A DNA stretch of 64,000 bases. Origin: an uncultured Candidatus Saccharibacteria bacterium (GTDB taxonomy: Bacteria; Patescibacteriota; Minisyncoccia; Phycocordibacterales; DATGWK01). The position numbers and the translations under genes were made by a program. The number at the start of each line of letters is the position of its first letter. The stretch's first letter is position 1. The notes under the pieces are model-generated. The model saw nothing but the letters and a program-made list of their open reading frames with translations. It did no database searches and was not told the origin of the DNA. Of this stretch, positions 6,920 through 36,357 are shown in pieces. Location: contig CAYRZH010000002.1 of the NCBI GenBank assembly GCA_964428845.1, positions 6,924 through 70,923 of the forward strand. The letters are read 5' to 3'.

Positions 6920-7264
6920 TTAGAACCCATTTAGCCAGTATCTTTTGATTATCGGCAAAGATAGAGTAGAGAGAATGTAACCTAAAACTGGGACAAAGGC
7001 TTTTAGCCAAAAGTTGTTTTCATGAATCATTACGAGCCAAATAGCGGCGACAATGTATGTGATTATCGAAATCGTGAATCTTCGAACCCAACTTACTTCC
7101 CAAGCCTTGTCATTTTCTACACGATTGTTACGCTCTCTAATTGTCTTAAGCTCAGTTTCTATTTCTTGTGTATTCATGAAAGTAATAATAGCAAACATAA
7201 AAAGAAAACCACCGGATGAGTACCCGGCGGTCTTTTGAGTGGCGTTTTTAGGTAACCACTTCAC
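6920..7264 (-). CDS. hypothetical small membrane protein
   Basis: Three predicted TM segments; no family recognised. Confidence 0.4.
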   Translation of the reverse strand: MKWLPKNATQKTAGYSSGGFLFMFAIITFMNTQEIETELKTIRERNNRVENDKAWEVSWVRRFTISIITYIVAAIWLVMIHENNFWLKAFVPVLGYILSTLSLPIIKRYWLNGF

Positions 7265-7832
7265 TACCTCTTATTTCTTCAGCTCCTTTTCTGTGAAGTG
7301 CGGCGGCGGCGATGAGGCCACAGAGGATCACACAGACACCTGGGTAGAATCGCTCTTCGATCAACCAACCCTTGCCTCCCATTAGTGAGAGGAAGTTGGC
7401 GACGACGTACCCAATGTATATGTACCCGGTCTGCTTGTCGGGCTTCCGCCATGATTCCACGATCTGCGGTACCCCTGCGATGAAAACCGCAAGAGTGCTC
7501 GCAACGATCGCTGTTCTCGATCCGCTCATTTTCCAAACCACCAAACAAATGATGACCAGTGCGAGTATGAGCCACTCGAACCAGGTCCATTTGAATAGTT
7601 TTTTGTAAAGAAGCGAAGCAATCACGAACGACCCGCCAATCACATAGAAGACGAGCAAGAGAAAGTTTCCTCTCTCAATGATCGTGCTCACCATTGCTAT
7701 GGCGTCCAAGAAGACCCAAAGCATCCAAGCTGCGACGCTTTGCTTTACTTCACCTCTCATGATGCCTCGGATAAGCGGGACGTATAGCAGGAAGGCAAGC
7801 AGACCGCCCGCCCAGGCCAAAGTGCTCTCCAT
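7248..7832 (-). CDS. hypothetical polytopic membrane protein (194 aa), GC-enriched
   Basis: About 6 hydrophobic helices; roughly 52% GC. Confidence 0.5.
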   Translation of the reverse strand: MESTLAWAGGLLAFLLYVPLIRGIMRGEVKQSVAAWMLWVFLDAIAMVSTIIERGNFLLLVFYVIGGSFVIASLLYKKLFKWTWFEWLILALVIICLVVWKMSGSRTAIVASTLAVFIAGVPQIVESWRKPDKQTGYIYIGYVVANFLSLMGGKGWLIEERFYPGVCVILCGLIAAAALHRKGAEEIRGSEVVT

Positions 7833-7924: not shown

Positions 7925-8242
7925 CTCCGCGGGTAGGATTCGAACCTACGACCAATCGCTTACATTTGCTCCAAGCTTTCGCTCGGTATGGACTATATCA
8001 TCATCCTTCACCTGGTGGGTGGTTTGGATGTGGGGCGCTTCGTTCTGCTCTTGCAGAACTACTCTCTTGCGAGATAGTCTCTGAACCTTTCCTTTGATAA
8101 TTAATCTGGGGACTTGGCTGCTGATTGCCCACGGCTTTACGTTTGGGTTTCCAGCAATTCACCTCATTTTTCAGCCCGTATTCCTACGGGAAGCTGCGTA
8201 ATTTCGACACAGGCGATCGCTCTACCACTGAGCTACCGCGGA
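7925..8242 (-). tRNA. tRNA-Asn(GUU) interrupted by a group I intron (exons 8242-8209 and 7962-7925)
   Basis: The 5' exon reads TCCGCGG TA GCTC AGTGGTA GAGC G ATCGC CUGU. The 3' exon reads UAA GCGAT TGGTC GTAGG TTCGAAT CCTAC CCGCGGA G. This gives a perfect 7-bp acceptor stem, a CUGUUAA anticodon loop and G73 discriminator (fits Asn); CCA is not encoded. Confidence 0.75.
7963..8208 (-). ncRNA. group I self-splicing intron (246 nt) in the tRNA-Asn anticodon loop
   Basis: The conserved core elements occur in the right order: P AATTGCTGGAAA (8159-8148), Q AATCAGCAGCC (8126-8116), R GTTCAGAGACTATC (8086-8073) and S GATGATATAGTCC (8002-7990). The 5' splice site follows a U, the intron ends in G, and a GCAG guide sequence can pair with exon CUGU (U.G). 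Confidence 0.75.
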
Positions 8243-8310
8243 ATATTATATTTTCTACAAACTTCAAAGAACGCTGAACATCATAGCAAAAACTCCTCTA
8301 TAATAAAAGC

Positions 8311-8544
8311 ATGTACATCAAAATCCGCGCCGTACCATCGGCTAAAAAAGAGCTGTTCGAGCAAGTCTCCAAAGACCACTTTAAGATTACTGTGCGCGAG
8401 AAGCCGAAGAACAACCAGGCCAATCAGCGCATCGTCGCTCTCGTGGCTTCCCACTTCAAGATCGCTTCAGGGAAGGTGAGAATTATTTCAGGCCATCATT
8501 CGCCAAGCAAAATTCTTTCAGTCGATATTGAAACAGTCGGTTAA
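8311..8544 (+). CDS. DUF167 / YggU-family protein
   Basis: MYIKIRAVPSAKKE....ITVREKPKNNQANQRIVALVASHF...GKVRIISG matches the YggU pattern. Confidence 0.65.
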   Translation: MYIKIRAVPSAKKELFEQVSKDHFKITVREKPKNNQANQRIVALVASHFKIASGKVRIISGHHSPSKILSVDIETVG

Positions 8545-8614
8545 ATGTGTCCTATAAATTCCCAAGCACTATCTTTTGCTGATTTTGTAATTTTCTTTAG
8601 ACCAATTTGTTATA

Positions 8615-9037
8615 ATGAAAAAGATTATCAGTAACCATACGAGCATGAAAATAAACATCAAAGCCACAAATATGCATTTGACTCCCGAAATATCAGATTA
8701 TCTAGAAAAGAAGATAAATATGCTCGACAGACTGATCGACCCAGCTGATACAAGCGTTTCCTGCAATATAGAAGTCGGCAAGACAACCAACCACCACAAA
8801 ACAGGAGATGTTTTTAGGACAGAAATAAATTTAACAAAAGATGGCAAATACTTTCGGGCAGTGGCGGAAGAGGAGACACTCAACGCCTCGATTGATGAAG
8901 CGAAAGATGAAATCATGCGAGAGCTTAAGAGCCACAAATCAAAACGCCAGACTCTCATTCGACGTGGTGGTGCGAGAATAAAGGATCTTATAAGGGGTGT
9001 TGGAAATCTGAAGAATTTGAGGCGGTGGAGGAGGTAG
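8615..9037 (+). CDS. hpf: ribosome hibernation promoting factor / RaiA-family protein
   Basis: MKINIKATNMHLTPEISDYLEKKI is a sigma-54 modulation / YfiA family signature; the start may be at 8645. Confidence 0.8.
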   Translation: MKKIISNHTSMKINIKATNMHLTPEISDYLEKKINMLDRLIDPADTSVSCNIEVGKTTNHHKTGDVFRTEINLTKDGKYFRAVAEEETLNASIDEAKDEIMRELKSHKSKRQTLIRRGGARIKDLIRGVGNLKNLRRWRR

Positions 9038-12548: not shown

Positions 12549-12550
12549 CT

Positions 12551-12670
12551 AAGACAAAATCCGCACAAGCTACCTCGCCTCGCACGGATATTTTTCTGCT
12601 GAAAAATTCCTCGTGCTCGCGCCGTCGCGCTCGCAAGGCTTCGTCTCGGTACTTGTGCGGATTTTGTCTT
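12551..12670. repeat. 120-bp element with 19-bp perfect terminal inverted repeats (AAGACAAAATCCGCACAAG / CTTGTGCGGATTTTGTCTT) around a GC-rich core
   Basis: Seen directly; the right arm overlaps the murA stop codon. It sits between murA and priA on the minus strand and may be a terminator structure or a MITE. Confidence 0.5.
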
Positions 12671-14180
12671 ATAAATCTCTCAATATCTGAATCTTTGCAC
12701 CAAGGCTATTGAGTCGCTTGATGATATCTTCGTAGCCACGATTGATACTGTAAATATTTCGTAGCACCGAGGTGCCCGAAGCCGCGAGCATACCGATAAG
12801 GATAATTGCGGCGGGGCGAAGGGCTGGCGGGCAAATGACCTCTGCCGCCTTGAGCTTTGTCGGACCGGTGATATAGATGCGATGTGGGTCGGCAAGTAGT
12901 GTGTCGGCGCCGAGTTTGTCGAGCTCTTTGTAGTGTATGGCGCGTTTCTCATAGACCCAGTCGTGTATAAAGGTGGTACCTTTGGCTTGGGTGGCGATCA
13001 CCGCGAAAAATGGAAGATTGTCTATGTTTAGTCCTGGATATGGTCGTGCCTCGATCTTTTCCTCGAGAGCCACGAGTTCGCTTGGTGATGTCTTGATATC
13101 TACTAGATTGGTACGTTCATTTAAGGCTTTATAACTTTTTATAATTTTATATTTAAAACCCATCTTCTCGAGTTTGAGCAGTTCGAGTTCTAGAAAATCA
13201 ATAGGACAGCGGCGAATGGTTATGCTCGACTTGGTCACTGCTGCCACGGCGATAAAAAACATGGACTCGATCGGATCCTCGCTCACATAATACGTGATCG
13301 GCTGGTCTATCACTTCTTTACCATGGATAGTTATTGTCGTTGTGCCTATACCTTCTATCTTCACGCCCAATTTTTCTAAAAAAAAGCAGACTTCTTGGCC
13401 CATGTAGTTGGCAGAAGCAAACTTGATGACAGTTTTTCCCGGGATCTTGGCGGCGGCGATGATGGTATTTTCGGTAACTGTGTCACCAGACTCGTAGAGC
13501 ACGATATAGTTGGGTTTGAGTGCATCTCTCTTCACCTCATAATGTTTGGAGGTGGTTTTTATATCCACCCCAAACTTTTCTAGGGCAAAAACATGAGGCT
13601 GTATAGTCCTAGAACCAAGTCTACACCCGCCAGCCTGGGGGAGTTTAAAACTTTTCGAGTTATGTATTAGGGAGCCGATAAGCATGATAATGCTTCTAGT
13701 TTTCTCTGCGGCTTCTGTGTTTATCTTTTTTATATCAATATTTTTAGGTGGTTTTATCTCGAGATCAGCACCACTCCATTTTGCCGATACGCCCATGCTC
13801 TCGAAGACCTCTATCATCCTGCGAACTTCTTCTATGCGAGGAACATTTTTTAAGATTGTTTTGTTTTTGTTTAAAAGGGAAGCGGCAAGAAGACCCATGG
13901 TGCCGTTTTTTGAAGTTTTTGTGACGATCTCGCCGGAAAGTTTTCTCCCGCCATCTATTTTTACATTTATTGCGCCACGAGAAATATTTAGAATATCCTT
14001 GTTCAACACAGAGCTGATCTTTGAGAGTGTCTCCGTGCTTAGGTTCTGCTCACCCTTCTCGATACGAGCAATGACACTTTGGGTTGTTCCGAGTGCTTTA
14101 CCAAACTCTTTCTGGGTGATACCACGCTCTTCTCGGAGGGTATGTATAAGTTTGCCGATATGTGCGAGCTGACTTTTCAT
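12669..14180 (-). CDS. murA: UDP-N-acetylglucosamine 1-carboxyvinyltransferase with an N-terminal XRE-type helix-turn-helix domain (HTH-MurA fusion)
   Basis: The N-terminal ~75 aa (LIHTLREERGITQKEFGKALGTTQSVIARIEKGEQNLSTETLSKISSVL) is an XRE HTH. It continues in one frame into a MurA N-terminus (KNGTMGLLAASLL..NVP) and a full MurA body. Confidence 0.8.
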   Translation of the reverse strand: MKSQLAHIGKLIHTLREERGITQKEFGKALGTTQSVIARIEKGEQNLSTETLSKISSVLNKDILNISRGAINVKIDGGRKLSGEIVTKTSKNGTMGLLAASLLNKNKTILKNVPRIEEVRRMIEVFESMGVSAKWSGADLEIKPPKNIDIKKINTEAAEKTRSIIMLIGSLIHNSKSFKLPQAGGCRLGSRTIQPHVFALEKFGVDIKTTSKHYEVKRDALKPNYIVLYESGDTVTENTIIAAAKIPGKTVIKFASANYMGQEVCFFLEKLGVKIEGIGTTTITIHGKEVIDQPITYYVSEDPIESMFFIAVAAVTKSSITIRRCPIDFLELELLKLEKMGFKYKIIKSYKALNERTNLVDIKTSPSELVALEEKIEARPYPGLNIDNLPFFAVIATQAKGTTFIHDWVYEKRAIHYKELDKLGADTLLADPHRIYITGPTKLKAAEVICPPALRPAAIILIGMLAASGTSVLRNIYSINRGYEDIIKRLNSLGAKIQILRDL

Positions 14181-14285
14181 ATTTAAAATCAGCATAGCAT
14201 ATATGATATGTTTTGTCTTGTCATTGATGATCTGAATTGTGGATAATGATAAGTAATCTTTTCTAGGCCAAACTTTTTTCATAAA

Positions 14286-14320
14286 AAATAGTTGTCAATT
14301 GAGTGGAATCAGAATATTAT
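14286..14320 (+). promoter_or_regulatory. sigma70-like promoter for mreB
   Basis: TTGTCA - 17 nt - TATTAT. Confidence 0.4.
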
Positions 14321-14340
14321 TGAGTTCGATCACTAAAAAT

Positions 14341-15354
14341 ATGGCTTTTTTACGCAAAAAATTGGGAATCGATCTCGGTACCACAAGCACACTGGTTTTT
14401 GTCCCGGGCAAAGGGGTTGTCTTAAATGAACCCTCCGTGGTAGCTGTTTCTGAAGAGGACAACAAGATCATGGCTATTGGTATCGAAGCCAAAAGCATGA
14501 TCGGTAAGACTCCAGAAAGTATTATTGCCTACAGACCCATGAAGGATGGAGTTATTGCTGACTATCGTGTCACCGAGGCCATGCTTCGGTATTATATAAA
14601 TAAAGCTTTGCCGAAATGGAACCTTACAAAACCCGAAGTCCTCATCTCTGTCCCTGCTGGTGTAACTTCCACAGAACGTCGCGCGGTCATCGAGGCGGCG
14701 ATCAAGGCGGGGGCCAAGAATGCTTATGTGGTAAAAGAACCCATCCTTGCGGCAATCGGAGCGGGAATTCCGATCCAGGAAGCAGTAGGGCATATGATAG
14801 TCGATATCGGTGGAGGTACCACTGACGTTGCAGTGATCTCGCTCGGGGGTATAGTAGCGGCCAAATCCGTAAAATGTGCTGGCAACAAGATCGACTACGC
14901 TATTGCCGACTATATCAAGAAGACATTCAATCTAGCGATCGGAGACAAAACTGCTGAAGATGTGAAGATTAAGATAGGTTCGGCTATTCCACTCGACGAA
15001 GAACTCTCGATCACCATCAAAGGTCGAGACTTTATTTCTGGTCTACCACGCTCGGTTGAGATAAAGACAAACGAGATCGTCAAAGCTATAGGTAGGGAAT
15101 TGCGGGAAATGGTCAAAGCTATAAAAGATGTCTTTCAGGATACTCCGCCAGAGCTTGCCTCGGACATTATTGATAGGGGAATAATAATGACCGGAGGATC
15201 CTCTCAACTTCGAAATCTCCCAGAACTTGTTTATCGAAGAACCGGTGTGAAGGCTATTCTTGCAGAAGATCCAATTTTTTGTGTTGTGAAAGGTACAGGA
15301 ATAGCCCTCGAGCACTTAGCTGTGTATAAGAAAAGCATTATCGCCAAAAGGTAG
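14341..15354 (+). CDS. mreB: rod shape-determining protein MreB (paralog 1)
   Basis: Actin-like ATPase motifs (LGIDLGTTST, DIGGGTTD). Confidence 0.85.
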   Translation: MAFLRKKLGIDLGTTSTLVFVPGKGVVLNEPSVVAVSEEDNKIMAIGIEAKSMIGKTPESIIAYRPMKDGVIADYRVTEAMLRYYINKALPKWNLTKPEVLISVPAGVTSTERRAVIEAAIKAGAKNAYVVKEPILAAIGAGIPIQEAVGHMIVDIGGGTTDVAVISLGGIVAAKSVKCAGNKIDYAIADYIKKTFNLAIGDKTAEDVKIKIGSAIPLDEELSITIKGRDFISGLPRSVEIKTNEIVKAIGRELREMVKAIKDVFQDTPPELASDIIDRGIIMTGGSSQLRNLPELVYRRTGVKAILAEDPIFCVVKGTGIALEHLAVYKKSIIAKR

Positions 15355-15410
15355 TTATTTTTTGGCTTTTTTGACGATTGTTAAAAAAAGATTTTTAATA
15401 TTGGATGTTG

Positions 15411-15438
15411 TTGACCTCTACTGAAATTGGAGTAATAT
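15411..15438 (+). promoter_or_regulatory. sigma70-like promoter of the unassigned RNA
   Basis: TTGACC - 16 nt - TAATAT. Confidence 0.45.
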
Positions 15439-15444
15439 TTCAAA

Positions 15445-15745
15445 CCAGGAGCGTGCATCAGACGAAAGAGCTTCCCGCAACGCGGCTCAATTGCCGCAAC
15501 AAACCCTGACCTCTTGCCAAAGGCTCGGCTACAAACCCACCGTCCCAACAGTGGGCGACAAGGGAGCGTAGTTTCCGCAAGGAAGGAACCCGTCGGGTTC
15601 TCGATCCGTTGTCGGGAGGAGATTCCGGCAATAGTCCGGAACGAACCCCCCCAAGGGTAAAGGGAAGAGTACTGGGGTCCGCTCAAAAAGACTCTGCCAC
15701 GCACGCAAACCTATCCCCCCGGCCATCACGGTTGGGGGGATTTTC
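15445..15745 (+). ncRNA. unassigned structured RNA candidate (~300 nt, GC-rich)
   Basis: About 58% GC in a ~40% GC genome, with no credible ORF on either strand. It is bracketed by a strong promoter and a CCCCCC..GGGGGG-Urich intrinsic terminator and contains a GNRA-capped helix (UUUCC GCAA GGAAG). Confidence 0.4.
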
Positions 15746-15749
15746 ATTT
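15715..15749 (+). terminator. intrinsic terminator of the unassigned RNA
   Basis: CCCCCC ggccatcacggtt GGGGGG followed by ATTTTCATTT. Confidence 0.6.
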
Positions 15750-15807
15750 ATTTGTTAGCCTTTTAGATTTATTCGATGGCGGGTGTTTTTAGTATAATGT
15801 TTGTATC

Positions 15808-16518
15808 GTGGAAACTTTAAAGAGAATCTATAGGGAAACATCCACTTTGCACCACGCCTGCCTTCTTTTGGGAGAAAGCGACTCACTTCTTAAAAAATTA
15901 GTTGATTTTCTAGAAGATGAAACCTCTTTTCGTTCTCGCGGCAATCCAGACTTCTTCCAAATTTCTCTCGATGTCTGCGGCATCGACGAAGCTCGCATGC
16001 TCAAAGATAGAGCTTTGATGAGGCCTATTGGGGATATCAAGATAGTGATTGTTTCCTTTAACTCTATAACCACTGAAGCCCAAAATTCTCTCTTGAAGAT
16101 TTTTGAAGAACCTTTGGGTCAGACCCATTTTTTTGTTATCGCTCCCAACAAAGAAATATTTCTCGATACGTTATTATCAAGATTTTTTGTTGTTGATGGT
16201 GAACTAGACGGCAGTACTGACAGAAGTAAAATGGATAGTGTAGCCGAATCATTCTTGAAGTCATCTCCAAAAGACAGGATCTCTCAAGTCGCTAGCATGA
16301 TAGAAAAAAAGGATAAAACTGAAGTCGTTCGGTTTCTAAACTCCCTCGAAGGTTTGATATCCAAAAGTCTAAAAAAAGATGGGCCATCAGAGAGTTTGGT
16401 AAACATTTCAGAAGAGATACTTCGTTCAAAGAGTTTCCTCTACGATCGTTCTCCATCACTCAAGATGATTCTCGAACATTTATCTTGTATTATACCTATA
16501 TCCAATAAATCCAAATGA
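15808..16518 (+). CDS. holB: DNA polymerase III delta-prime subunit-like (clamp-loader) protein
   Basis: AAA+ clamp-loader-like N-domain (HHACLLLGE, DEARML..IVSFNSITTEAQNSLLKIFEEP). Confidence 0.65.
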   Translation: METLKRIYRETSTLHHACLLLGESDSLLKKLVDFLEDETSFRSRGNPDFFQISLDVCGIDEARMLKDRALMRPIGDIKIVIVSFNSITTEAQNSLLKIFEEPLGQTHFFVIAPNKEIFLDTLLSRFFVVDGELDGSTDRSKMDSVAESFLKSSPKDRISQVASMIEKKDKTEVVRFLNSLEGLISKSLKKDGPSESLVNISEEILRSKSFLYDRSPSLKMILEHLSCIIPISNKSK

Positions 16519-23952: not shown

Positions 23953-25014
23953 ATGAAAAACTCGATTCTGAAACTCTATAACCTGTTATCGAACGATATC
24001 GGTATCGATCTCGGTACTGCAAATACTTTAGTGTACATGCGCGGCAGAGGGATCGTCATAAACGAGCCATCTGTAGTCGCGGTGAACCAAAAGACTGGCA
24101 GGATTGTTGCTATCGGTAGCCAGGCGAAGCAGATGCTCGGACGGACCCCTACTCACATAGTGGCTGTAAAACCATTGGTTGAGGGTGTTATTTCGGACTT
24201 TGAGGTCACAGAAGAAATGATTACCTACCTCATCAACTCTGGACAAAAGGATTCCAAGAAATTTCTAGGGCCGCGAGTGGTGGTTGGAGTTCCTTCAGGT
24301 ATCACCAATGTTGAGATCAGGGCGGTGCGTGATGCCACCAAGAACGCCGGAGCCAGAGAAGTTCATATTGTAGAAGAGCCCGTCGCTGCTGCTATTGGTA
24401 TAAGACTTCCTGTCATGGATCCGGTGGGTAGTATGGTTGTCGATATTGGAGGTGGTACCACAGATATTGCAGTCATCTCCCTTGGCGGAGTTGTCCGCTC
24501 CAAAAATGTTAGGATTGCCGGCGACAAGTTCGACAACGACATCATTTCCTATATCCGCGGGGAATTTAAAATTCTTATTGGCGACAAAACAGCAGAAAGC
24601 GTAAAACTTGCTATCGGGGCAGTTCTTCCTTCTATCCAAGGAATGGAAGCGGTTATTCGGGGTCGTGATCTTGTGACCGGTCTTCCGAAGGAGGTCGTGA
24701 TTACCGACACAGACGTTCGAGAGGCTATGTCACAGTCTATTGGCACGTTGGTGGAATCTGTAAAAGAAGTCATAGAGACGACACCACCAGAGATCCTTTC
24801 TGACGTCATGCACCGGGGGGTTTACCTTGCCGGCGGTGGGGCTCTCATCAAAGGTTTCAGCCAGCTTCTAGAAGACCATATCAAGATTCCAGTTCATATT
24901 GCCGAAGACCCCCTCACCGCTGTGGCTCGCGGAGCCGGTATCATCCTAGAAGACCTTCCTTACTTCAAAGAAGTGCTCATTGCAAACAAAGATGATTTAC
25001 CTCCGAAAAAGTAA
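23953..25014 (+). CDS. mreB: rod shape-determining protein MreB (paralog 2, in the mreBCD-mrdA cluster)
   Basis: IGIDLGTANT and DIGGGTTD motifs. Confidence 0.85.
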   Translation: MKNSILKLYNLLSNDIGIDLGTANTLVYMRGRGIVINEPSVVAVNQKTGRIVAIGSQAKQMLGRTPTHIVAVKPLVEGVISDFEVTEEMITYLINSGQKDSKKFLGPRVVVGVPSGITNVEIRAVRDATKNAGAREVHIVEEPVAAAIGIRLPVMDPVGSMVVDIGGGTTDIAVISLGGVVRSKNVRIAGDKFDNDIISYIRGEFKILIGDKTAESVKLAIGAVLPSIQGMEAVIRGRDLVTGLPKEVVITDTDVREAMSQSIGTLVESVKEVIETTPPEILSDVMHRGVYLAGGGALIKGFSQLLEDHIKIPVHIAEDPLTAVARGAGIILEDLPYFKEVLIANKDDLPPKK

Positions 25015-25783
25015 GAAGGGTGGTAAAAAAATAATTTTCATCAGCTCTTTGGTGATTTTGTTTCTTGTCTTAGCTTTCTTTCTGATGTCGAGAACTCCCG
25101 ACTCTCTTGCTACTGTCACAAGATCAGTAGGCTTTCCGATCTGGAAAGCCAGGAACTTTTTCGTGGATGAAACCAAAGACACTTTCAACTTTTTTCGCTC
25201 TCACAATGCCTTGATTACGGAGAATAAAAGATTGAAAGAAGAGAACGATACTCTAAGGTCAACACTTCTTGGTCTAGATACTCTCAAGTCAGAACATGAA
25301 AAACTTCTAGCCGACTTTGGGCGCAGCACTATAGAAAAAAAGGTTTTAGCTTCGGTACTGGTGAGGCCGCCACAGACGCCGTACGACACTCTCATTCTAG
25401 ACGTGGGAAGTGACAACGGAATCATTCCCGGCAATATCTTTTATAGTATGAGCGGCTTTGCTCTCGGTACCATAAACGATGTTACCAAACGGACTTCGAA
25501 AGCCATTCTTTTTTCTAGCACCGATGTTGAAGTTGAGGGGCTGGTCGAACGTAGTGGTTTTCCCATCAATCTCCGGGGTAAGGGAGGAGGAATTTTTGAA
25601 GTTCAGGCCCCGCAGGACGCAGATATCCTGAAGGACGATGTCGTTATTATGCCAACCTTGAGGGGTTCAATAATCGGTTTTGTAGCCGACATAGAATCAA
25701 GCGTTACGAGTGCCTTCAGGCGCGTTCTTGTTCAGATACCTATAAATGTTTCGCACCTGCGTTTCGTCCAGGTCGAGATCTGA
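24980..25783 (+). CDS. mreC: rod shape-determining protein MreC
   Basis: N-terminal TM helix, a coiled-coil (ENKRLKEENDTLRS) and a beta-rich C-domain; position after mreB. The start may be at 25085. Confidence 0.7.
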   Translation: MQTKMIYLRKSKKGGKKIIFISSLVILFLVLAFFLMSRTPDSLATVTRSVGFPIWKARNFFVDETKDTFNFFRSHNALITENKRLKEENDTLRSTLLGLDTLKSEHEKLLADFGRSTIEKKVLASVLVRPPQTPYDTLILDVGSDNGIIPGNIFYSMSGFALGTINDVTKRTSKAILFSSTDVEVEGLVERSGFPINLRGKGGGIFEVQAPQDADILKDDVVIMPTLRGSIIGFVADIESSVTSAFRRVLVQIPINVSHLRFVQVEI

Positions 25784-25803: not shown

Positions 25804-26079
25804 ATGAAAAAATTAATTATAAGAATAATAGTCAATGTCGCCGCAGCATTAAGTATTTTTATTATGCCTTGGTGGTTCTCCCTCCTTCTTATCATCAGTT
25901 TTCTCTTTTTATTTAATAATTATTATGAAATATTATTTTGGGGGTTTCTCATAGATGTCCTCTACGGAGTTCCTAACCATTCCTTTTTTCAGACCAATAT
26001 GTTATTTACCTCGATCTCATTTTTGGCTTTGGTCGTTTCTTTCTTTGCTAAGCGCAATCTAAGTATATATTCATCATGA
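25804..26079 (+). CDS. mreD: rod shape-determining protein MreD-like small membrane protein
   Basis: Small multi-TM protein between mreC and the PBP2 gene. Confidence 0.55.
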   Translation: MKKLIIRIIVNVAAALSIFIMPWWFSLLLIISFLFLFNNYYEILFWGFLIDVLYGVPNHSFFQTNMLFTSISFLALVVSFFAKRNLSIYSS

Positions 26080-27758
26080 TCTGGCCATTTAGAAAAACTT
26101 CCTACAGTGAAATCAATCCAGAGGAAATTTTTATTGATTCAAGCAACTTGCCTAAGTTTGATACACATCATTTTGAAGGCAGGCTTGAGAAGCCGATTAC
26201 GGCGAGAACCGTTATTATTCTATCCACAGTTTTCATAATCTGTGGCGCTGTTTTTCTTGGAAGGCTTTGGCTTCTACAAATAAACCGCGGTGAAGCGTAC
26301 AGTGTTCAAAGTGAGAACAACCGTTTGCGTTTCAGCGACATTTTTGCCAATCGTGGAGTCATTTTCGACCGCAATGGAGTGATCCTCGCTTCAAATAAAG
26401 AAGACCCCGGGGGTGCCGAATTCGCATTGCGCACATACCCAGAAATTCCAGGCTTGTCTCATGTTGTAGGGTATTTGAAATATCCAACCAAGGACGCTCA
26501 CGGCTTCTATTATAGGAAAAATTTTATCGGCGAAGACGGTATTGAGGCGGCCATGAACGACACACTCTCTGGTACCAACGGCATAAAGATCGTCGAAACA
26601 GATGCTTTGGGTAAAGTTCAATCGGAAAGTGTCACCCGTTTGCCAGAAGATGGCGAAAATATTGTTCTTTCTATAGATTCTAAAGTTCAAAGCGAACTAT
26701 ATAAAATAATCAAAGATGTCGCCGAAGCCAAGGGATTTAGTGGCGGATCTGGCCTTATCATGGATGTGAGAAACGGAGAACTTCTTTCGCTCGTGAGTTA
26801 TCCAGAATATAGTTCGGCACTCATGACTCAAGGAAATTCTGAAGATTTCAAAAAATATCTAAACGATAGCGCTAAACCATTTCTCAACAGAGCTGTTTCT
26901 GGTCTGTATACTCCAGGTTCTATCATAAAGCCGATTCTCGCTATGGCTGCTCTAAAAGAGGGAATCATTGATCCCAATAAGCAAATATTGAGTACCGGCT
27001 CAATCTCTGTTCCGAATCCATATTTCCCAGACAAAGATACTGTTTTTCTGGATTGGAAAGCTCACGGCTATGTAGATATGCGTAGAGCGATAGCTGTCTC
27101 CTCAAACGTGTATTTCTACTCGATAGGTGGTGGTTTTTCTGATCAGAAGGGTCTTGGTATAGAAAAGATTGAAAAATATGTAAGACTTTTTGGTTTGGGA
27201 GAAAAAACAGGCATAAATCTCTCGAGCGAACAAGTTGGTGTTATACCAAACCCTCGGTGGAAAAAGGAAGTATTTGATGGAGATCTTTGGCGAATAGGGG
27301 ACACTTACAACAGTTCGATCGGCCAGTACGGTTTTCAGGTTACACCTGTGCAGGTGGTGCGCTACATTGGGGCATTGGCAAATGGGGGGTCACTTTTTAC
27401 TCCGACTCTTCTCAAAGATAGCAGTTCTACCAAGGTAGGGAAGCTCGACTTCATGCCCGAGCATTTTGACATCATTCGCGAAGGAATGCGCGGATCGGTC
27501 CTTGATGGCACAGCTTCTGGTCTCAATGTGCCCTTTGTAGAAGTTGCGGCTAAAACGGGAACAGCCGAGATTGGTACAGTAAGACAGCTCGTCAATTCTT
27601 GGTCGGTCGGCTTTTTCCCATACAAAAATCCAAGGTATGCGTTCGTTATTCTTATGGAACGCGGCCCACGTAGCAATCAAGTCGGAGCTACTGCTGTGAT
27701 GAGACAGATGATTGATTGGTTGAATATATATGGCCAGGAATATGTTATCCCAAGCTAG
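26076..27758 (+). CDS. mrdA: penicillin-binding protein 2 (elongasome transpeptidase)
   Basis: SxxK (GSIIKP), SxN and KTGTA transpeptidase motifs, plus an N-terminal TM anchor. Confidence 0.85.
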   Translation: MIWPFRKTSYSEINPEEIFIDSSNLPKFDTHHFEGRLEKPITARTVIILSTVFIICGAVFLGRLWLLQINRGEAYSVQSENNRLRFSDIFANRGVIFDRNGVILASNKEDPGGAEFALRTYPEIPGLSHVVGYLKYPTKDAHGFYYRKNFIGEDGIEAAMNDTLSGTNGIKIVETDALGKVQSESVTRLPEDGENIVLSIDSKVQSELYKIIKDVAEAKGFSGGSGLIMDVRNGELLSLVSYPEYSSALMTQGNSEDFKKYLNDSAKPFLNRAVSGLYTPGSIIKPILAMAALKEGIIDPNKQILSTGSISVPNPYFPDKDTVFLDWKAHGYVDMRRAIAVSSNVYFYSIGGGFSDQKGLGIEKIEKYVRLFGLGEKTGINLSSEQVGVIPNPRWKKEVFDGDLWRIGDTYNSSIGQYGFQVTPVQVVRYIGALANGGSLFTPTLLKDSSSTKVGKLDFMPEHFDIIREGMRGSVLDGTASGLNVPFVEVAAKTGTAEIGTVRQLVNSWSVGFFPYKNPRYAFVILMERGPRSNQVGATAVMRQMIDWLNIYGQEYVIPS

Positions 27759-33318: not shown

Positions 33319-35031
33319 ATGAGATCGGAGCTCGTTTTGATTAGAGTTCGTCTACTCTTTTTTTTGCTTTTGATTTTTGCCATCATCCTCGTCTCTCGTC
33401 TATATTTTGTGCAAATTGTTTCCGGTGAAATTTACAGTACCAAGGCGGACCGACAGTATTTAAAGCCAAATTCATCGATTCTCAATCGAGGGACAATCTA
33501 TTTTAAAACTAAAGATGGTGAAATTGTTACTGCCGCTCATCAGAAGACGGGTGACACTATTGCTATAAATCCAAGTATTCTCAAAGATCCGGAAATGGCT
33601 TTCGAGCAAATTTCGAAAGTCGTCTCAATAGACAAAGAGAATTTTCTTTTGAGAGCCGCAAAGAAAAATGATCCCTATGAGGAAGTTCTAAAAAAGGTTG
33701 ATCTTGGTGATGGGGAAAAAATTCGTGACCTCAATATTCCTGGTGTGAACGCCTACAAAGAAAAATGGAGATTTTATCCAAACCATTCTGCCGGTGCCCA
33801 TGTTTTGGGCATTATGGCCCATAAAGGGGATGAATATGCAGGACGTTATGGGTTAGAACAATATTACGAAGATATTCTGGTGAGGAAAAATGAATTGTCT
33901 TATTCAAATTTCTTTGTCGAGATGTTTTTAAACGTCAAGAAAACCTTTTCTGGTGAAGACTCGGCTGAAGGGGACATCGTTACTTCTATCGAGCCGACAG
34001 TAGAATCATTCTTGGAACGAGAGGTGGAAACAATAAACAAAACCTGGAACGGAGAATTTAGTGGAGGAATAATAATAAATCCGAAAAATGGAGAAATAAT
34101 TGCCATGGCTATTTCTCCAACTTTCAATCCAAATGATTTAAAGAACGTCGACGATATCAATGTTTTCTCAAATAAGTTGGTAGAAGGTGTTTATGAGATG
34201 GGATCCGTGGTTAAGCCCATAACCCTTGTAAGTGGTTTGGACTCGGGTGCGATAACAGCTCGGACGACGTACTTTGACTCTGGCTCTATCACTTTAAACA
34301 ACAAAACAATTTCAAATTTTGATAAAAAAGGGCGAGGTTTGGTGGACATGCAAAAAGTTCTCAATGACTCCCTAAACACCGGTGCCGCATTTGTCATGAG
34401 TAAAATGGGGAAGGAAAAGTTTTCGGAATATATGCTAAACTTCGGCTTCGGCGAAAAAACGGGTGTCGATCTGCCAAATGAAGCAGCGCCTCTGGCAGAC
34501 AACCTCAAGAGCCCTCGAGAAATCGAGCACGCCACTGCCTCCTTCGGCCAAGGGGTAGCCATAAGTCCGATTTCAGCTGCTAGGGCCTTCTCTGTTATCG
34601 CAAATGGCGGCACACTCATTACCCCTCACATAGTCACCAATATCAAATATAAAAGTGGGATGACAAAGGACATTTCTTTTCCGGAGGGGAAAAGGGTTTT
34701 GAAAAAAGAGAGTGCCGAGGAAATTTCGAGAATGCTCGTCGAGGTTGTCGATGACGCGCTTCTTGGGGGGGTTTTGAAACTTCCTCATTATAGTGTGGCT
34801 GCCAAAACTGGCACGGCCCAGATTGCCAAGGAAAATAGTGGCGGATACTACGACGACCGATATCTACACTCATTTTTCGGATTTTTCCCAGCCTATGATG
34901 CTAAGTTTCTAGTTTTCCTTATTACATATAAACCTGGTCAAGTAAAATATGCTTCGGAAACTTTAGCACGCCCCTTTTTCAATATTGTTAAATATCTGAT
35001 AAATTATTACAAAATCCCACCAGACCGATAA
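33319..35031 (+). CDS. ftsI: penicillin-binding protein (FtsI-type divisome transpeptidase)
   Basis: SVVKP (SxxK), SxN and KTGTA motifs, plus an N-terminal TM anchor. Confidence 0.85.
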   Translation: MRSELVLIRVRLLFFLLLIFAIILVSRLYFVQIVSGEIYSTKADRQYLKPNSSILNRGTIYFKTKDGEIVTAAHQKTGDTIAINPSILKDPEMAFEQISKVVSIDKENFLLRAAKKNDPYEEVLKKVDLGDGEKIRDLNIPGVNAYKEKWRFYPNHSAGAHVLGIMAHKGDEYAGRYGLEQYYEDILVRKNELSYSNFFVEMFLNVKKTFSGEDSAEGDIVTSIEPTVESFLEREVETINKTWNGEFSGGIIINPKNGEIIAMAISPTFNPNDLKNVDDINVFSNKLVEGVYEMGSVVKPITLVSGLDSGAITARTTYFDSGSITLNNKTISNFDKKGRGLVDMQKVLNDSLNTGAAFVMSKMGKEKFSEYMLNFGFGEKTGVDLPNEAAPLADNLKSPREIEHATASFGQGVAISPISAARAFSVIANGGTLITPHIVTNIKYKSGMTKDISFPEGKRVLKKESAEEISRMLVEVVDDALLGGVLKLPHYSVAAKTGTAQIAKENSGGYYDDRYLHSFFGFFPAYDAKFLVFLITYKPGQVKYASETLARPFFNIVKYLINYYKIPPDR

Positions 35032-35037
35032 ATCCTA

Positions 35038-36357
35038 ATGAAAAAAATATTCAAAAAAATAGTTGTTTGGATTCTTACAGCCGAAGCTCATTTGGTACTC
35101 AAAAAATACAAGCCGAAAATAATTGCAGTTACTGGTAGCGTCGGGAAGACGTCGACCAAAGATGCTATCTACACCATTCTTGCTAGTAAGGCCCATGTAC
35201 GGAAGAGCCAGAAAAGTTTCAATAGTGAGATAGGGGTGCCCCTGACAATTTTGGGTTTAGAGAACGCCTGGAGCAGTCCTCTTGGGTGGCTACACAACTT
35301 TATAGAGGGTTTGATTCTAATAATCTTGCCAAGTATTTATCCAAAAATTGTTATTCTGGAAATAGGTGCAGATAGACCTGGTGATATAGAAAAGATTGGC
35401 AGGTGGATTCACCCGAATATTGTAGTAATAACAAGGTTGAGCAAAGTACCTGTCCACGTCGAGTTTTTTTCTTCCCCTGAAGATGTTAAAAGGGAAAAAG
35501 AATTTCTGGCAAAAGCTCTAAAAAAGGAAGGAATATTAATTTTGAACGCCGATGATGAAGATGTGATGTCCTTTGCGAAGAATGGAAATAGTAATGGAAA
35601 GAATGCTCGTCTCGTCACATATGGTTTTAAAAATAATGCCAAAGTGAAGGCCTCTGAATATAAAATTATTTATGAAAACCGAGACAGTATCAAATTTCCG
35701 ATAGGGATTAGTTACAAGGTGAACTTTGAAACAACGATCTCGGAGGTAACCGTTGGGGGTACGGTGGGTATGCAAAATGCTTATACAAGCCTCGCAGCGA
35801 TCGCTGCAGGTGTTTCGAGTGGATATGACCTTCCAAAGCTTGTAGGTATTTTGAGTGAACATAAAACACCTCCGGGCAGAATGAAAATAATTGATGGATT
35901 GAATAACTCCATTATTATCGATGATTCCTACAATTCTTCTCCTGTGGCGCAGAGTGAAGCCTTGGAAGCGTTACGTGACTTAGATGCACATGGACGCAAA
36001 ATAGTAATACTGGGTGATATGCTCGAGCTGGGGCCATTCTCTGTAGGTGAGCACAAATTGGTCGGAGAGAAGGTGGCAGAAGTAGCATCAAACCTGATCA
36101 CCGTAGGGGTAAGGGCTAGGGCTATCCGAGATGCGGCAATCAATGCTGGCATGAGCGCGAGTTCCACTATTTCCTTTGAGGATTCACGACAAGCTGGAGA
36201 ATATGCCAAATCTCTGATTGGTCCAGGAGATGTAGTTCTCGTGAAGGGCTCTCAAGGAGGTATTCGTATGGAAAGGGCCGTAGAGGCACTTATGGCTAGG
36301 CCGGAGGAAAAAGAAGAGCTACTTGTTCGTCAGGAGCCCGAGTGGCAGAAAAGATAA
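35038..36357 (+). CDS. murF: UDP-N-acetylmuramoyl-tripeptide--D-alanyl-D-alanine ligase
   Basis: Mur ligase P-loop IAVTGSVGKTSTK and Mur ligase middle and C-terminal domains. Confidence 0.8.
   Translation: MKKIFKKIVVWILTAEAHLVLKKYKPKIIAVTGSVGKTSTKDAIYTILASKAHVRKSQKSFNSEIGVPLTILGLENAWSSPLGWLHNFIEGLILIILPSIYPKIVILEIGADRPGDIEKIGRWIHPNIVVITRLSKVPVHVEFFSSPEDVKREKEFLAKALKKEGILILNADDEDVMSFAKNGNSNGKNARLVTYGFKNNAKVKASEYKIIYENRDSIKFPIGISYKVNFETTISEVTVGGTVGMQNAYTSLAAIAAGVSSGYDLPKLVGILSEHKTPPGRMKIIDGLNNSIIIDDSYNSSPVAQSEALEALRDLDAHGRKIVILGDMLELGPFSVGEHKLVGEKVAEVASNLITVGVRARAIRDAAINAGMSASSTISFEDSRQAGEYAKSLIGPGDVVLVKGSQGGIRMERAVEALMARPEEKEELLVRQEPEWQKR

Follow-up and report, generated by a model that had tools for sequence, protein, structure and literature searches.

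A helix-turn-helix domain fused to MurA in Patescibacteria and a palindrome at the promoter of the gene: a putative autoregulatory enzyme

The stretch of DNA analysed here (the window) comprises 64,000 nucleotides of contig CAYRZH010000002.1 (assembly GCA_964428845.1) from an uncultured Candidatus Saccharibacteria bacterium. On its minus strand, between a divergently oriented mreB paralogue and priA, it carries a murA gene whose product begins with an XRE-type helix-turn-helix (HTH) domain, and an 18-bp palindrome is located at the promoter of this gene. The coordinates are collected in Table 1. The open reading frame (ORF) spans 12669..14282 and would encode 537 amino acids if read from its first ATG. 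The ATG at 14180, from which a protein of 503 residues (MKSQLAHIGK..., MKSQLAHIGKLIHTLREERGITQKEFGKALGTTQSVIARIEKGEQNLSTETL...) runs unbroken into the MurA sequence, is almost certainly the real start since homologues measure 500–520 residues and align from residue 1, and since promoter and palindrome (14191..14210) fall inside the hypothetical extension of 34 codons. The 537-residue form starting from the ATG at 14282 was ruled out, because it would contain promoter and operator and because homologues begin at the equivalent of 14180.

Both domains are clearly recognizable in the protein. Pfam HTH_3 (PF01381) matches amino acids 47–97 of the 537-residue form with E 6e-17 and 61.4–61.8 bits (cutoff 23), a separate run of this profile gave E 8.5e-17, and the peptide GITQKEFGKALGTTQSVIARIEKGEQNLSTETL quoted by the first-pass annotation is found in the sequence. 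The AlphaFold2 model of the fusion, calculated from an alignment of 92 homologues, has pLDDT 90 and pTM 0.82 and shows a four-helix HTH (residues 2–59, with helices at 2–18, 23–30, 34–41 and 49–59), followed by a linker of about ten residues with pLDDT below 50 at residues 64–68. The MurA body is canonical, and its Cys loop is flexible. Neither a stop codon nor a change of frame separates the two parts, which are joined by a short conserved linker. This means that the in-frame fusion claimed in the first-pass annotation is real, as one ORF contains both Pfam domains and the homologues are fused likewise. The proposed HTH module was also recovered, with a smaller size than the roughly 75 residues given there: according to Pfam and the structural model it covers about 60–65 residues and is followed by the linker of some ten.

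The recognition helix reads T32-T33-Q34-S35-V-I-A-R39-I-E41. Residues R16, Q23, S35, R39, E41, G43 and N46 of the HTH are invariant across the 92 homologues and Q34 is conserved in at least 90% of them. With its HTH_3 score above the Pfam threshold and its conserved recognition-helix residues the domain has the features of an XRE/Cro-C1-type regulator. Its closest relatives in the PDB are HipB, HigA, PezA, C.BclI and SinR, and the 60 best PDB matches are all DNA-binding XRE proteins. Among the NCBIfam models TIGR03070 (Y4mF/HipB-type antitoxin) was found with E 3e-11 and 43.1 bits, i.e. below its cutoff of 71.65, and PRK08154 (BzdR-type) also matched the fusion protein. The window fusion was considered as a type II antitoxin and rejected: its neighbours are mreB and priA, no toxin gene is among them, and TIGR03070 stays below threshold.

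The MurA part appears to be complete, as had been claimed. Pfam EPSP_synthase (PF00275) covers amino acids 110–524 of the 537-residue form (E 3e-47; profile positions 2–417 of 417), the score for the MurA subfamily PRK09369 is 321.5 bits (cutoff 297), and residues 71–500 can be aligned with MurA enzymes in the PDB from one end to the other (best E 8.5e-53). This alignment spans the Cys-loop GGC-x-G-x-R, the K-N pair, the D305 equivalent and the R-G-Y-E arginine. K22, N23, R91, C115, R120, D305, R371 and R397 of Escherichia coli MurA correspond to K91, N92, R162, C186, R191, D387, R455 and R481, and these eight catalytic or substrate-binding equivalents are invariant in 92 close homologues; the equivalent of D369 is the sole checked position that is not conserved. 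The E. coli sequence used as reference had the right length (419 residues) and aligned cleanly. No second MurA-like gene was detected in the window, nor in the flanks (±6 kb) of 84 related loci (L001–L084). We therefore propose, judging from these residues, that the window protein is a working MurA, i.e. the enzyme of the first committed step towards peptidoglycan precursors.

The architecture is widespread. An identical protein (P0001) is present at NCBI on a 108-kb contig. In a search of 5.8 billion proteins, of which the best 120 clusters were examined, 116 of these clusters have a length of at least 495 residues, and both PF01381 and PF00275 are listed for nearly all of them down to 70% identity; they come from metagenome-assembled genomes (MAGs) of Patescibacteria, Paceibacterota and Parcubacteria out of four independent data sources. 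One genome per GTDB species was scanned with a profile built from the alignment of closer homologues, which yielded more than 600 matches. Among the best 80 loci inspected 78 carry the HTH in frame (55–76% identity), and the lineages named include Taylor-, Nomura-, Kaiser-, Lipton-, Uhr- and Doudnabacteria as well as Saccharimonadales. The frame stays open through the HTH and the whole of MurA in 80 of 80 two-domain loci (species representatives and related ones), which range from Paceibacteria to Saccharimonadia, and among 1.84 billion cluster representatives fusions were found as far down as 33% identity. The taxonomic breadth was taken from explicitly named Paceibacteria-type and Saccharimonadales MAGs only; the label “uncultured Candidatus Saccharibacteria” of third-party annotation entries is attached to many assemblies, looks generic and was not used. 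Thus, the extension is found in nearly all of the best relatives and is not peculiar to one assembly. A sequencing or assembly artefact, in which a frameshift or a lost stop codon joined two genes, is refuted by these comparative data and can be given practically no credence, since the conserved in-frame fusion occurs as a single ORF with a conserved linker in hundreds of independent assemblies (NCBI, JGI, ENA, Logan). The first-pass annotation had called this architecture unusual, which holds in comparison with model organisms only; within Patescibacteria the fusion is the normal form of MurA.

Outside this phylum a cluster of 246 members from the cultured actinomycetotal genus Nonomuraea contains the fusion with 52% identity to the window protein. 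These sequences carry RefSeq accessions or UniProt entries and are titled MurA or “helix-turn-helix domain-containing protein”. In Nonomuraea phyllanthi (CP045572.1, 5665057-5682586, locus L087) the protein (WP_139636312.1) has 509 residues and its gene is flanked on one side by a fusion gene for formyltransferase/enoyl-CoA-hydratase and on the other by a phage-type integrase. This location beside an integrase suggests that HTH-murA was acquired by horizontal transfer in Nonomuraea.

Upstream of nearly all fusion genes we found a palindrome of 18 bp with the general form TATA[G/T]CATATATG[C/A]TATA. It usually continues into AT or CT, and its right half thereby constitutes an extended -10 element (TGnTATAAT or TATACT). 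In the window the palindrome is the sole match with up to three mismatches in 64 kb (0.02 expected); it scores 22.9 bits with the position weight matrix, and no other site in the window exceeds 8 bits. Within 250 bp upstream of the gene 63 of 75 fusion loci have a site with at most three mismatches to TATAKCATATATGMTATA and 46 have one with at most two, compared with 4 of 390 random 250-bp windows of the same loci that reach three mismatches or fewer. All 63 sites agree at positions T3, C6, G13 and A16. When 912 kb of DNA from the loci were scanned, all matches with up to two mismatches were situated immediately upstream of HTH-murA. About half of the palindromes begin 26–31 nucleotides ahead of the ATG, a spacing that places the -10 hexamer about ten nucleotides from the start codon. 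The same holds for the window with its ATG at 14180, and a transcription start about four nucleotides before the ATG, which would give a near-leaderless mRNA, can be inferred.

Some further elements were seen around the palindromes. A DnaA-box-like sequence TTATCCACA occurs as an exact match at 14238..14246 (minus strand), 28 nucleotides upstream of the window palindrome, and in 13 of the 63 loci a match with at most one mismatch is present within 45 nucleotides upstream. These matches lie 15–36 nucleotides upstream of the palindrome, i.e. at about the -35 position, whereas by a rough estimate about 0.25 would be expected by chance across the 63 loci; this strong excess may point to DnaA as an additional input or to an unusual -35 element. 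In some lineages (e.g. of the Doudnabacteria type; L022, L023, L024, L029, L032, L037 and L047) two palindromes are found 50–160 bp apart, one after a terminator hairpin and the other adjoining the ATG, which suggests dual operators or cooperative binding.

Several comparative observations connect the palindrome with the fused HTH. In three lineages (L001/L002, L042 and L075) the HTH was lost by in-frame deletion; the HTH-less protein of L001/L002 is still 87% identical (“MKNSGGAINLKIEGG”). These lineages retain the mreB–murA–priA–def synteny with divergent mreB and the -10 element, and their best palindrome matches have 6, 4 and 6 mismatches, respectively, which corresponds to the background. 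Furthermore, residue 33 of the recognition helix covaries with base 5 of the operator and its mirror position, base 14 (Fisher p = 7e-24, a value that is not corrected for phylogeny). With T33 (TTQS) base 5 of the half-site is G in 42 of 46 half-sites, whereas the 74 half-sites that go with S33 (TSQS) have T (61 half-sites) or C (11 half-sites) in 72 cases. The rule is also obeyed by Nonomuraea (S33 with T5/A14) and by the group-2 protein of L086. N. phyllanthi, with a genome of about 70% GC, has the AT-rich palindrome AATCTCATATGTGAGATA at a distance of exactly 29 nucleotides upstream of the HTH-murA start codon, where it falls within the last part of the preceding gene. On this comparative evidence the palindrome is strictly associated with the fused HTH: it occupies the gene's own promoter in the window and in the 63 of 75 fusion loci and is lost in the HTH-less ones. 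The autoregulation suggested in the first-pass annotation thereby gains strong comparative support from a palindrome conserved on the gene's own -10 region, from which DNA binding by the fused HTH, its dimerization and repression rather than activation would follow as inferred properties.

The same palindrome is known to us from a second genomic context. Metagenomes of JGI were scanned for exact TATAGCATATATGCTATA, which gave 82 sites in 80 loci. Four of them precede HTH-murA, 18 precede toxin-first operons of the Gp49 type (PF05973), in 15 of which the XRE antitoxin was seen, and 24 directly precede small XRE genes; of the remaining sites ten are at contig ends, 22 lack an XRE gene and in four cases one is found within 800 bp. 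This means that a toxin operon or an XRE gene is located downstream of 46 of 72 sites away from contig edges. The HTH domains of these antitoxins are 45–52% identical to that of MurA and have the helix TTQS-x-x-AR-x-E in common with it. Since palindrome and recognition helix are shared, this palindrome appears to be the kind of operator used by a whole HigA-like XRE subfamily, which would include the HTH of MurA, consistent with the match to the Y4mF/HipB-type antitoxins. Thus, the HTH-plus-operator module looks as if it had been recruited from HigA-like antitoxin regulators. Individual examples of TATAGCATATATGCTATA at the promoter of a Gp49/DUF891 (PF05973) toxin-like gene paired with an XRE antitoxin of about 90–100 residues are found in L101, L126, L134, L140, L141, L151, L160 and others; the operon in L141 covers 8365..9023, and stand-alone small XRE genes occur in L106 and L149.

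We regard it as probable that HTH-MurA is a bifunctional protein, namely a MurA enzyme and at the same time the autorepressor of its own gene (a “trigger enzyme”). Catalytic residues and a DNA-binding domain are found in one polypeptide and a palindrome lies at its own promoter, which is the sequence signature of this type of protein. The C-terminal 430 residues would act as MurA enzyme and the N-terminal 60 as XRE-type DNA-binding domain. Regulators of the XRE family typically bind palindromes as dimers and control their own genes (PMC12565409). Two copies of the protein would likewise sit on the 18-bp palindrome over the extended -10 element of their own promoter, occupation of the palindrome would block RNA polymerase, and the amount of MurA would be set by negative autoregulation. 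Less firmly, the MurA fold may serve as sensor: UDP-N-acetylglucosamine (UDP-GlcNAc), phosphoenolpyruvate or UDP-N-acetylmuramic acid (UDP-MurNAc) might tune DNA binding via the open/closed transition of the enzyme, and transcription could in this way be coupled to precursor flux. Co-regulation of the divergent mreB is possible but unsupported.

Several observations weigh against this bifunctional role. MurA enzymes are generally monomers, and no dimer interface was identified in the fusion, whose AlphaFold2 model represents a monomer with a floppy linker. The score for the MurA equivalog model TIGR01072 is 314.3 bits and remains below the cutoff of 392.7. A good palindrome is missing in 12 of the 75 fusion loci, and the HTH is dispensable, as its loss in three lineages demonstrates. 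Part of the conservation of the palindrome is due to its right half, which doubles as promoter element, and the covariation of residue 33 with base 5 mainly divides two clades. Other XRE proteins have the same operator type, so that another regulator might bind in trans. Finally, our view of the genome covers 64 kb, and a second murA gene or further copies of the operator may be located elsewhere.

In some distant relatives the enzyme function appears to have been abandoned. In a group of fusions (P0130, P0131, P0139, P0144, P0145, P0176, P0178 and P0271) the HTH is highly conserved and the equivalents of K22, R91, C115 and R120 have been replaced (K22R, R91I/N, C115L/K and R120P/T). In three of five loci the gene of such a pseudo-enzyme is divergent from a separate murA–murB operon (L085, 6619..9536; L086, 6624..9503; L210, 3768..6740), and the stand-alone MurA is catalytically intact in L085 and L086, the two that were checked. 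In all three, ddl and/or a gene for a Mur ligase comes after the pseudo-enzyme gene, and the palindrome is found in the short intergenic region between murA–murB and the regulator–murC genes. In L209 the HTH-pseudoMurA gene is the last of an operon with a NUDIX and a sugar-nucleotidyl transferase gene, and palindromes are located upstream of the first two genes, while in L208 the palindrome overlaps GATATAAT four nucleotides before the ATG. As HTH, operator and MurA fold have outlasted catalysis, the regulatory role seems to have been selected in its own right, and since the fold itself was kept it should contribute to regulation as sensor or oligomerization module. It is probable that these degenerate HTH-MurA-like proteins descend from the enzyme and now serve as dedicated regulators. 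Retention of the fold after loss of the catalytic residues also lends indirect support to ligand control of DNA binding. A more far-reaching scenario, in which HTH-MurA is a metabolite-sensing trigger enzyme throughout the phylum, the ligand-dependent open or closed state of its MurA fold controls operator binding by an HTH derived from HigA, a single protein thus provides feedback on the committed step of cell-wall synthesis, and in which acquisition of a second murA turned it into a pseudo-enzyme sensor of the murA–murB and murC genes, can be put forward as a tentative possibility, with the odds rather against it.

Whether the palindrome really belongs to the fused HTH is the point at which an alternative deserves most attention. 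It could be bound in trans by another XRE protein, e.g. a HigA-like antitoxin, or could simply be a symmetric or bidirectional extended -10 element, and the HTH of MurA would then do something else. The identical 18-mer ahead of many unrelated XRE genes and toxin-antitoxin operons speaks for such a view, as does the TGnTATAAT element in the right half, since its mirror image could act as promoter of the divergent mreB. However, the fused HTH has the very recognition helix of those antitoxins, the left half decays upon deletion of the HTH though promoter and mreB stay, and the palindrome is kept in loci without a divergent gene (in Saccharimonadia and Nonomuraea). Together with the covariation of residue 33 and base 5 and the lack of any further such site in 912 kb of flanking DNA this renders binding in trans or a mere promoter role unlikely.

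Doubt may be directed at the enzyme instead. If the MurA part of the window protein were a sensor only, the true MurA would be encoded elsewhere in the genome, and the existence of clear pseudo-enzyme relatives, the TIGR01072 score under its cutoff and the restriction of the view to 64 kb leave some room for this. We consider it quite improbable, as the checked catalytic and substrate-binding residues (except D369) are kept and invariant among close homologues, no second MurA-like gene was seen in the window or the flanks of L001–L084, and the true pseudo-enzymes have a stand-alone murA next to them in three of five loci. Still smaller is the chance that the HTH is a RodZ-like protein–protein module that tethers MurA to MreB filaments, an idea that would explain the divergent mreB. 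RodZ reportedly binds MreB through an XRE-fold HTH, about half of the loci have mreB as divergent neighbour, and two MreB paralogues plus MreC and penicillin-binding protein 2 (PBP2) are encoded in the window. The RodZ-type profile HTH_25, in contrast, gives E 0.17 and 12.1 bits (cutoff 24.6) where HTH_3 gives about 61 bits, the 60 best PDB matches include no RodZ chain, two of the DNA-reading residues (S35 and R39) are invariant and the third, Q34, shows a conservation of at least 90%, and fusion and operator persist without adjacent mreB whereas HTH-less genes keep it. The MreB tether was therefore rejected on profile, PDB comparison and distribution.

In comparison with canonical MurA (E. 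coli or Enterobacter cloacae; PDB 1uae, 1ejc, 5ujs) the bifunctional candidate has the two-lobed EPSP-synthase fold in full length (about 28–35% identity) and the equivalents of the Cys-loop GGC-x-G-x-R, of K-N, D305, R371 and R397. It differs by 70 N-terminal residues of HTH and linker, an insertion of about 12 residues and the palindromic operator at its gene; canonical MurA has no DNA-binding domain. Known trigger enzymes are BirA (biotin ligase and repressor), PutA (ribbon-helix-helix and proline dehydrogenase) and NadR (HTH and nicotinamide mononucleotide adenylyltransferase). Like HTH-MurA they combine a metabolic enzyme with an N-terminal DNA-binding domain in one chain and have an operator at their own or a pathway promoter, but the XRE fold, the MurA enzyme and the peptidoglycan pathway distinguish HTH-MurA from them. 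Ligand-controlled DNA binding has been demonstrated for BirA and PutA; for HTH-MurA it is a conjecture by analogy. From HigA-like antitoxins of Gp49/HigB-type modules, with which it shares a related HTH, the same helix and TATAGCATATATGCTATA at the promoter, HTH-MurA differs in having no toxin partner and in the N-terminal position of its HTH, which is fused to an enzyme. In BzdR, the regulator of the Azoarcus benzoate regulon, a shikimate-kinase-like effector domain used as sensor is joined to an XRE HTH. BzdR represents the best analogy for the catalytically dead relatives, as both are composed of an XRE HTH and an enzyme-derived sensor, while the window protein keeps its catalytic residues and has another enzyme fold. 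RodZ resembles the fusion in its N-terminal domain of XRE fold, its cell-wall context and its mreB neighbourhood. In contrast with RodZ, the window HTH has neither the RodZ sequence signal nor a transmembrane segment, is directly followed by MurA and comes with DNA-reading residues and an operator.

The sequences of HTH-MurA are already public under plain MurA names, whereas their joint reading as enzyme and regulator is undescribed in the literature covered: no published account of the fusion or its operator was found in full-text literature, with subscription journals mostly outside this coverage. Patescibacteria (candidate phyla radiation) account for a large share of bacterial diversity and have tiny genomes. 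To our knowledge they have very few recognizable transcription factors, and the regulation of their growth is almost unknown. If HTH-MurA acts as proposed, it would provide a conserved regulator that has a known binding site and is attached to the target of fosfomycin, the enzyme that commits carbon to peptidoglycan. The 18-bp site and the 60-residue domain would form a directly testable pair of cis and trans elements, with Nonomuraea as cultivable host, and the natural series from active enzyme–repressor to pseudo-enzyme regulator would illustrate how a sensor domain evolves from an enzyme. Thousands of database entries titled just “MurA” would then hide a second function.

Table 1. Position of HTH-murA, its domains, its control elements and the divergent gene in the window
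Feature	Position	Strand	Remarks
HTH-murA coding sequence	12669..14180	-	503 amino acids plus stop codon at 12669..12671; Pfam, NCBIfam, homologues
XRE/Cro-C1-type helix-turn-helix, amino acids 1–62	13995..14180	-	Pfam HTH_3, AlphaFold2 helices, invariant residues, PDB relatives
Flexible linker, amino acids 60–70	13971..14003	-	AlphaFold2 pLDDT about 50 for residues 61–70
MurA (UDP-GlcNAc 1-carboxyvinyltransferase) domain, amino acids 71–503	12672..13970	-	Codon of catalytic Cys186 at 13623..13625
Palindromic operator candidate, 18 bp	14193..14210		Minus strand CATATCATATATGCTATG; family consensus TATAKCATATATGMTATA
Extended -10 element	14191..14199	-	TG 14199-14198, TATGCT 14196-14191, read from sequence; promoter scan
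Divergent mreB paralogue	14341..15354	+	Pfam MreB_Mbl E 3e-131

The divergent position of mreB applies to HTH-less loci as well. In the window this gene, for which 14299..15354 was also recorded, starts at about 14341. According to the promoter scan this gene has promoter-like sites of its own at 14218-14247 and 14292-14320. A second MreB paralogue, about 45% identical to the first, is encoded at 23953..25014 (plus strand) and is followed by mreC (24980..25783) and by a PBP2-type transpeptidase gene (26076..27758); a further penicillin-binding protein and a Mur ligase are encoded at 33319..36357. With two MreB paralogues, MreC, penicillin-binding proteins and a Mur ligase the organism therefore has a full cell-wall machinery of the elongasome type.

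Some minor features of the window were noted as well. Rfam detects a group I catalytic intron at 7970..8315 on the minus strand (82 bits, E 2.5e-19), in which ARAGORN finds no tRNA; an ORF of 194 residues with no Pfam match is located just downstream (7248..7832). The stretch of about 380 bp between mreB and holB (15381..15760) has no convincing ORF; the translations of its overlapping ORFs look odd and G+C-rich by eye. A search of the non-coding region 15300..15850 against Rfam gave no match even at E ≤ 1, and a structured RNA of a kind not yet described could be encoded in this stretch. Abutting the murA stop codon, between this gene and priA, a perfect inverted repeat of 20 bp (TAAGACAAAATCCGCACAAG and its complement) surrounds 82 nucleotides at 12550..12671. 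The repeat is unique in the window, and the region folds as RNA with -63 kcal/mol (z = -8.8); it could act as terminator or represent a structured RNA.

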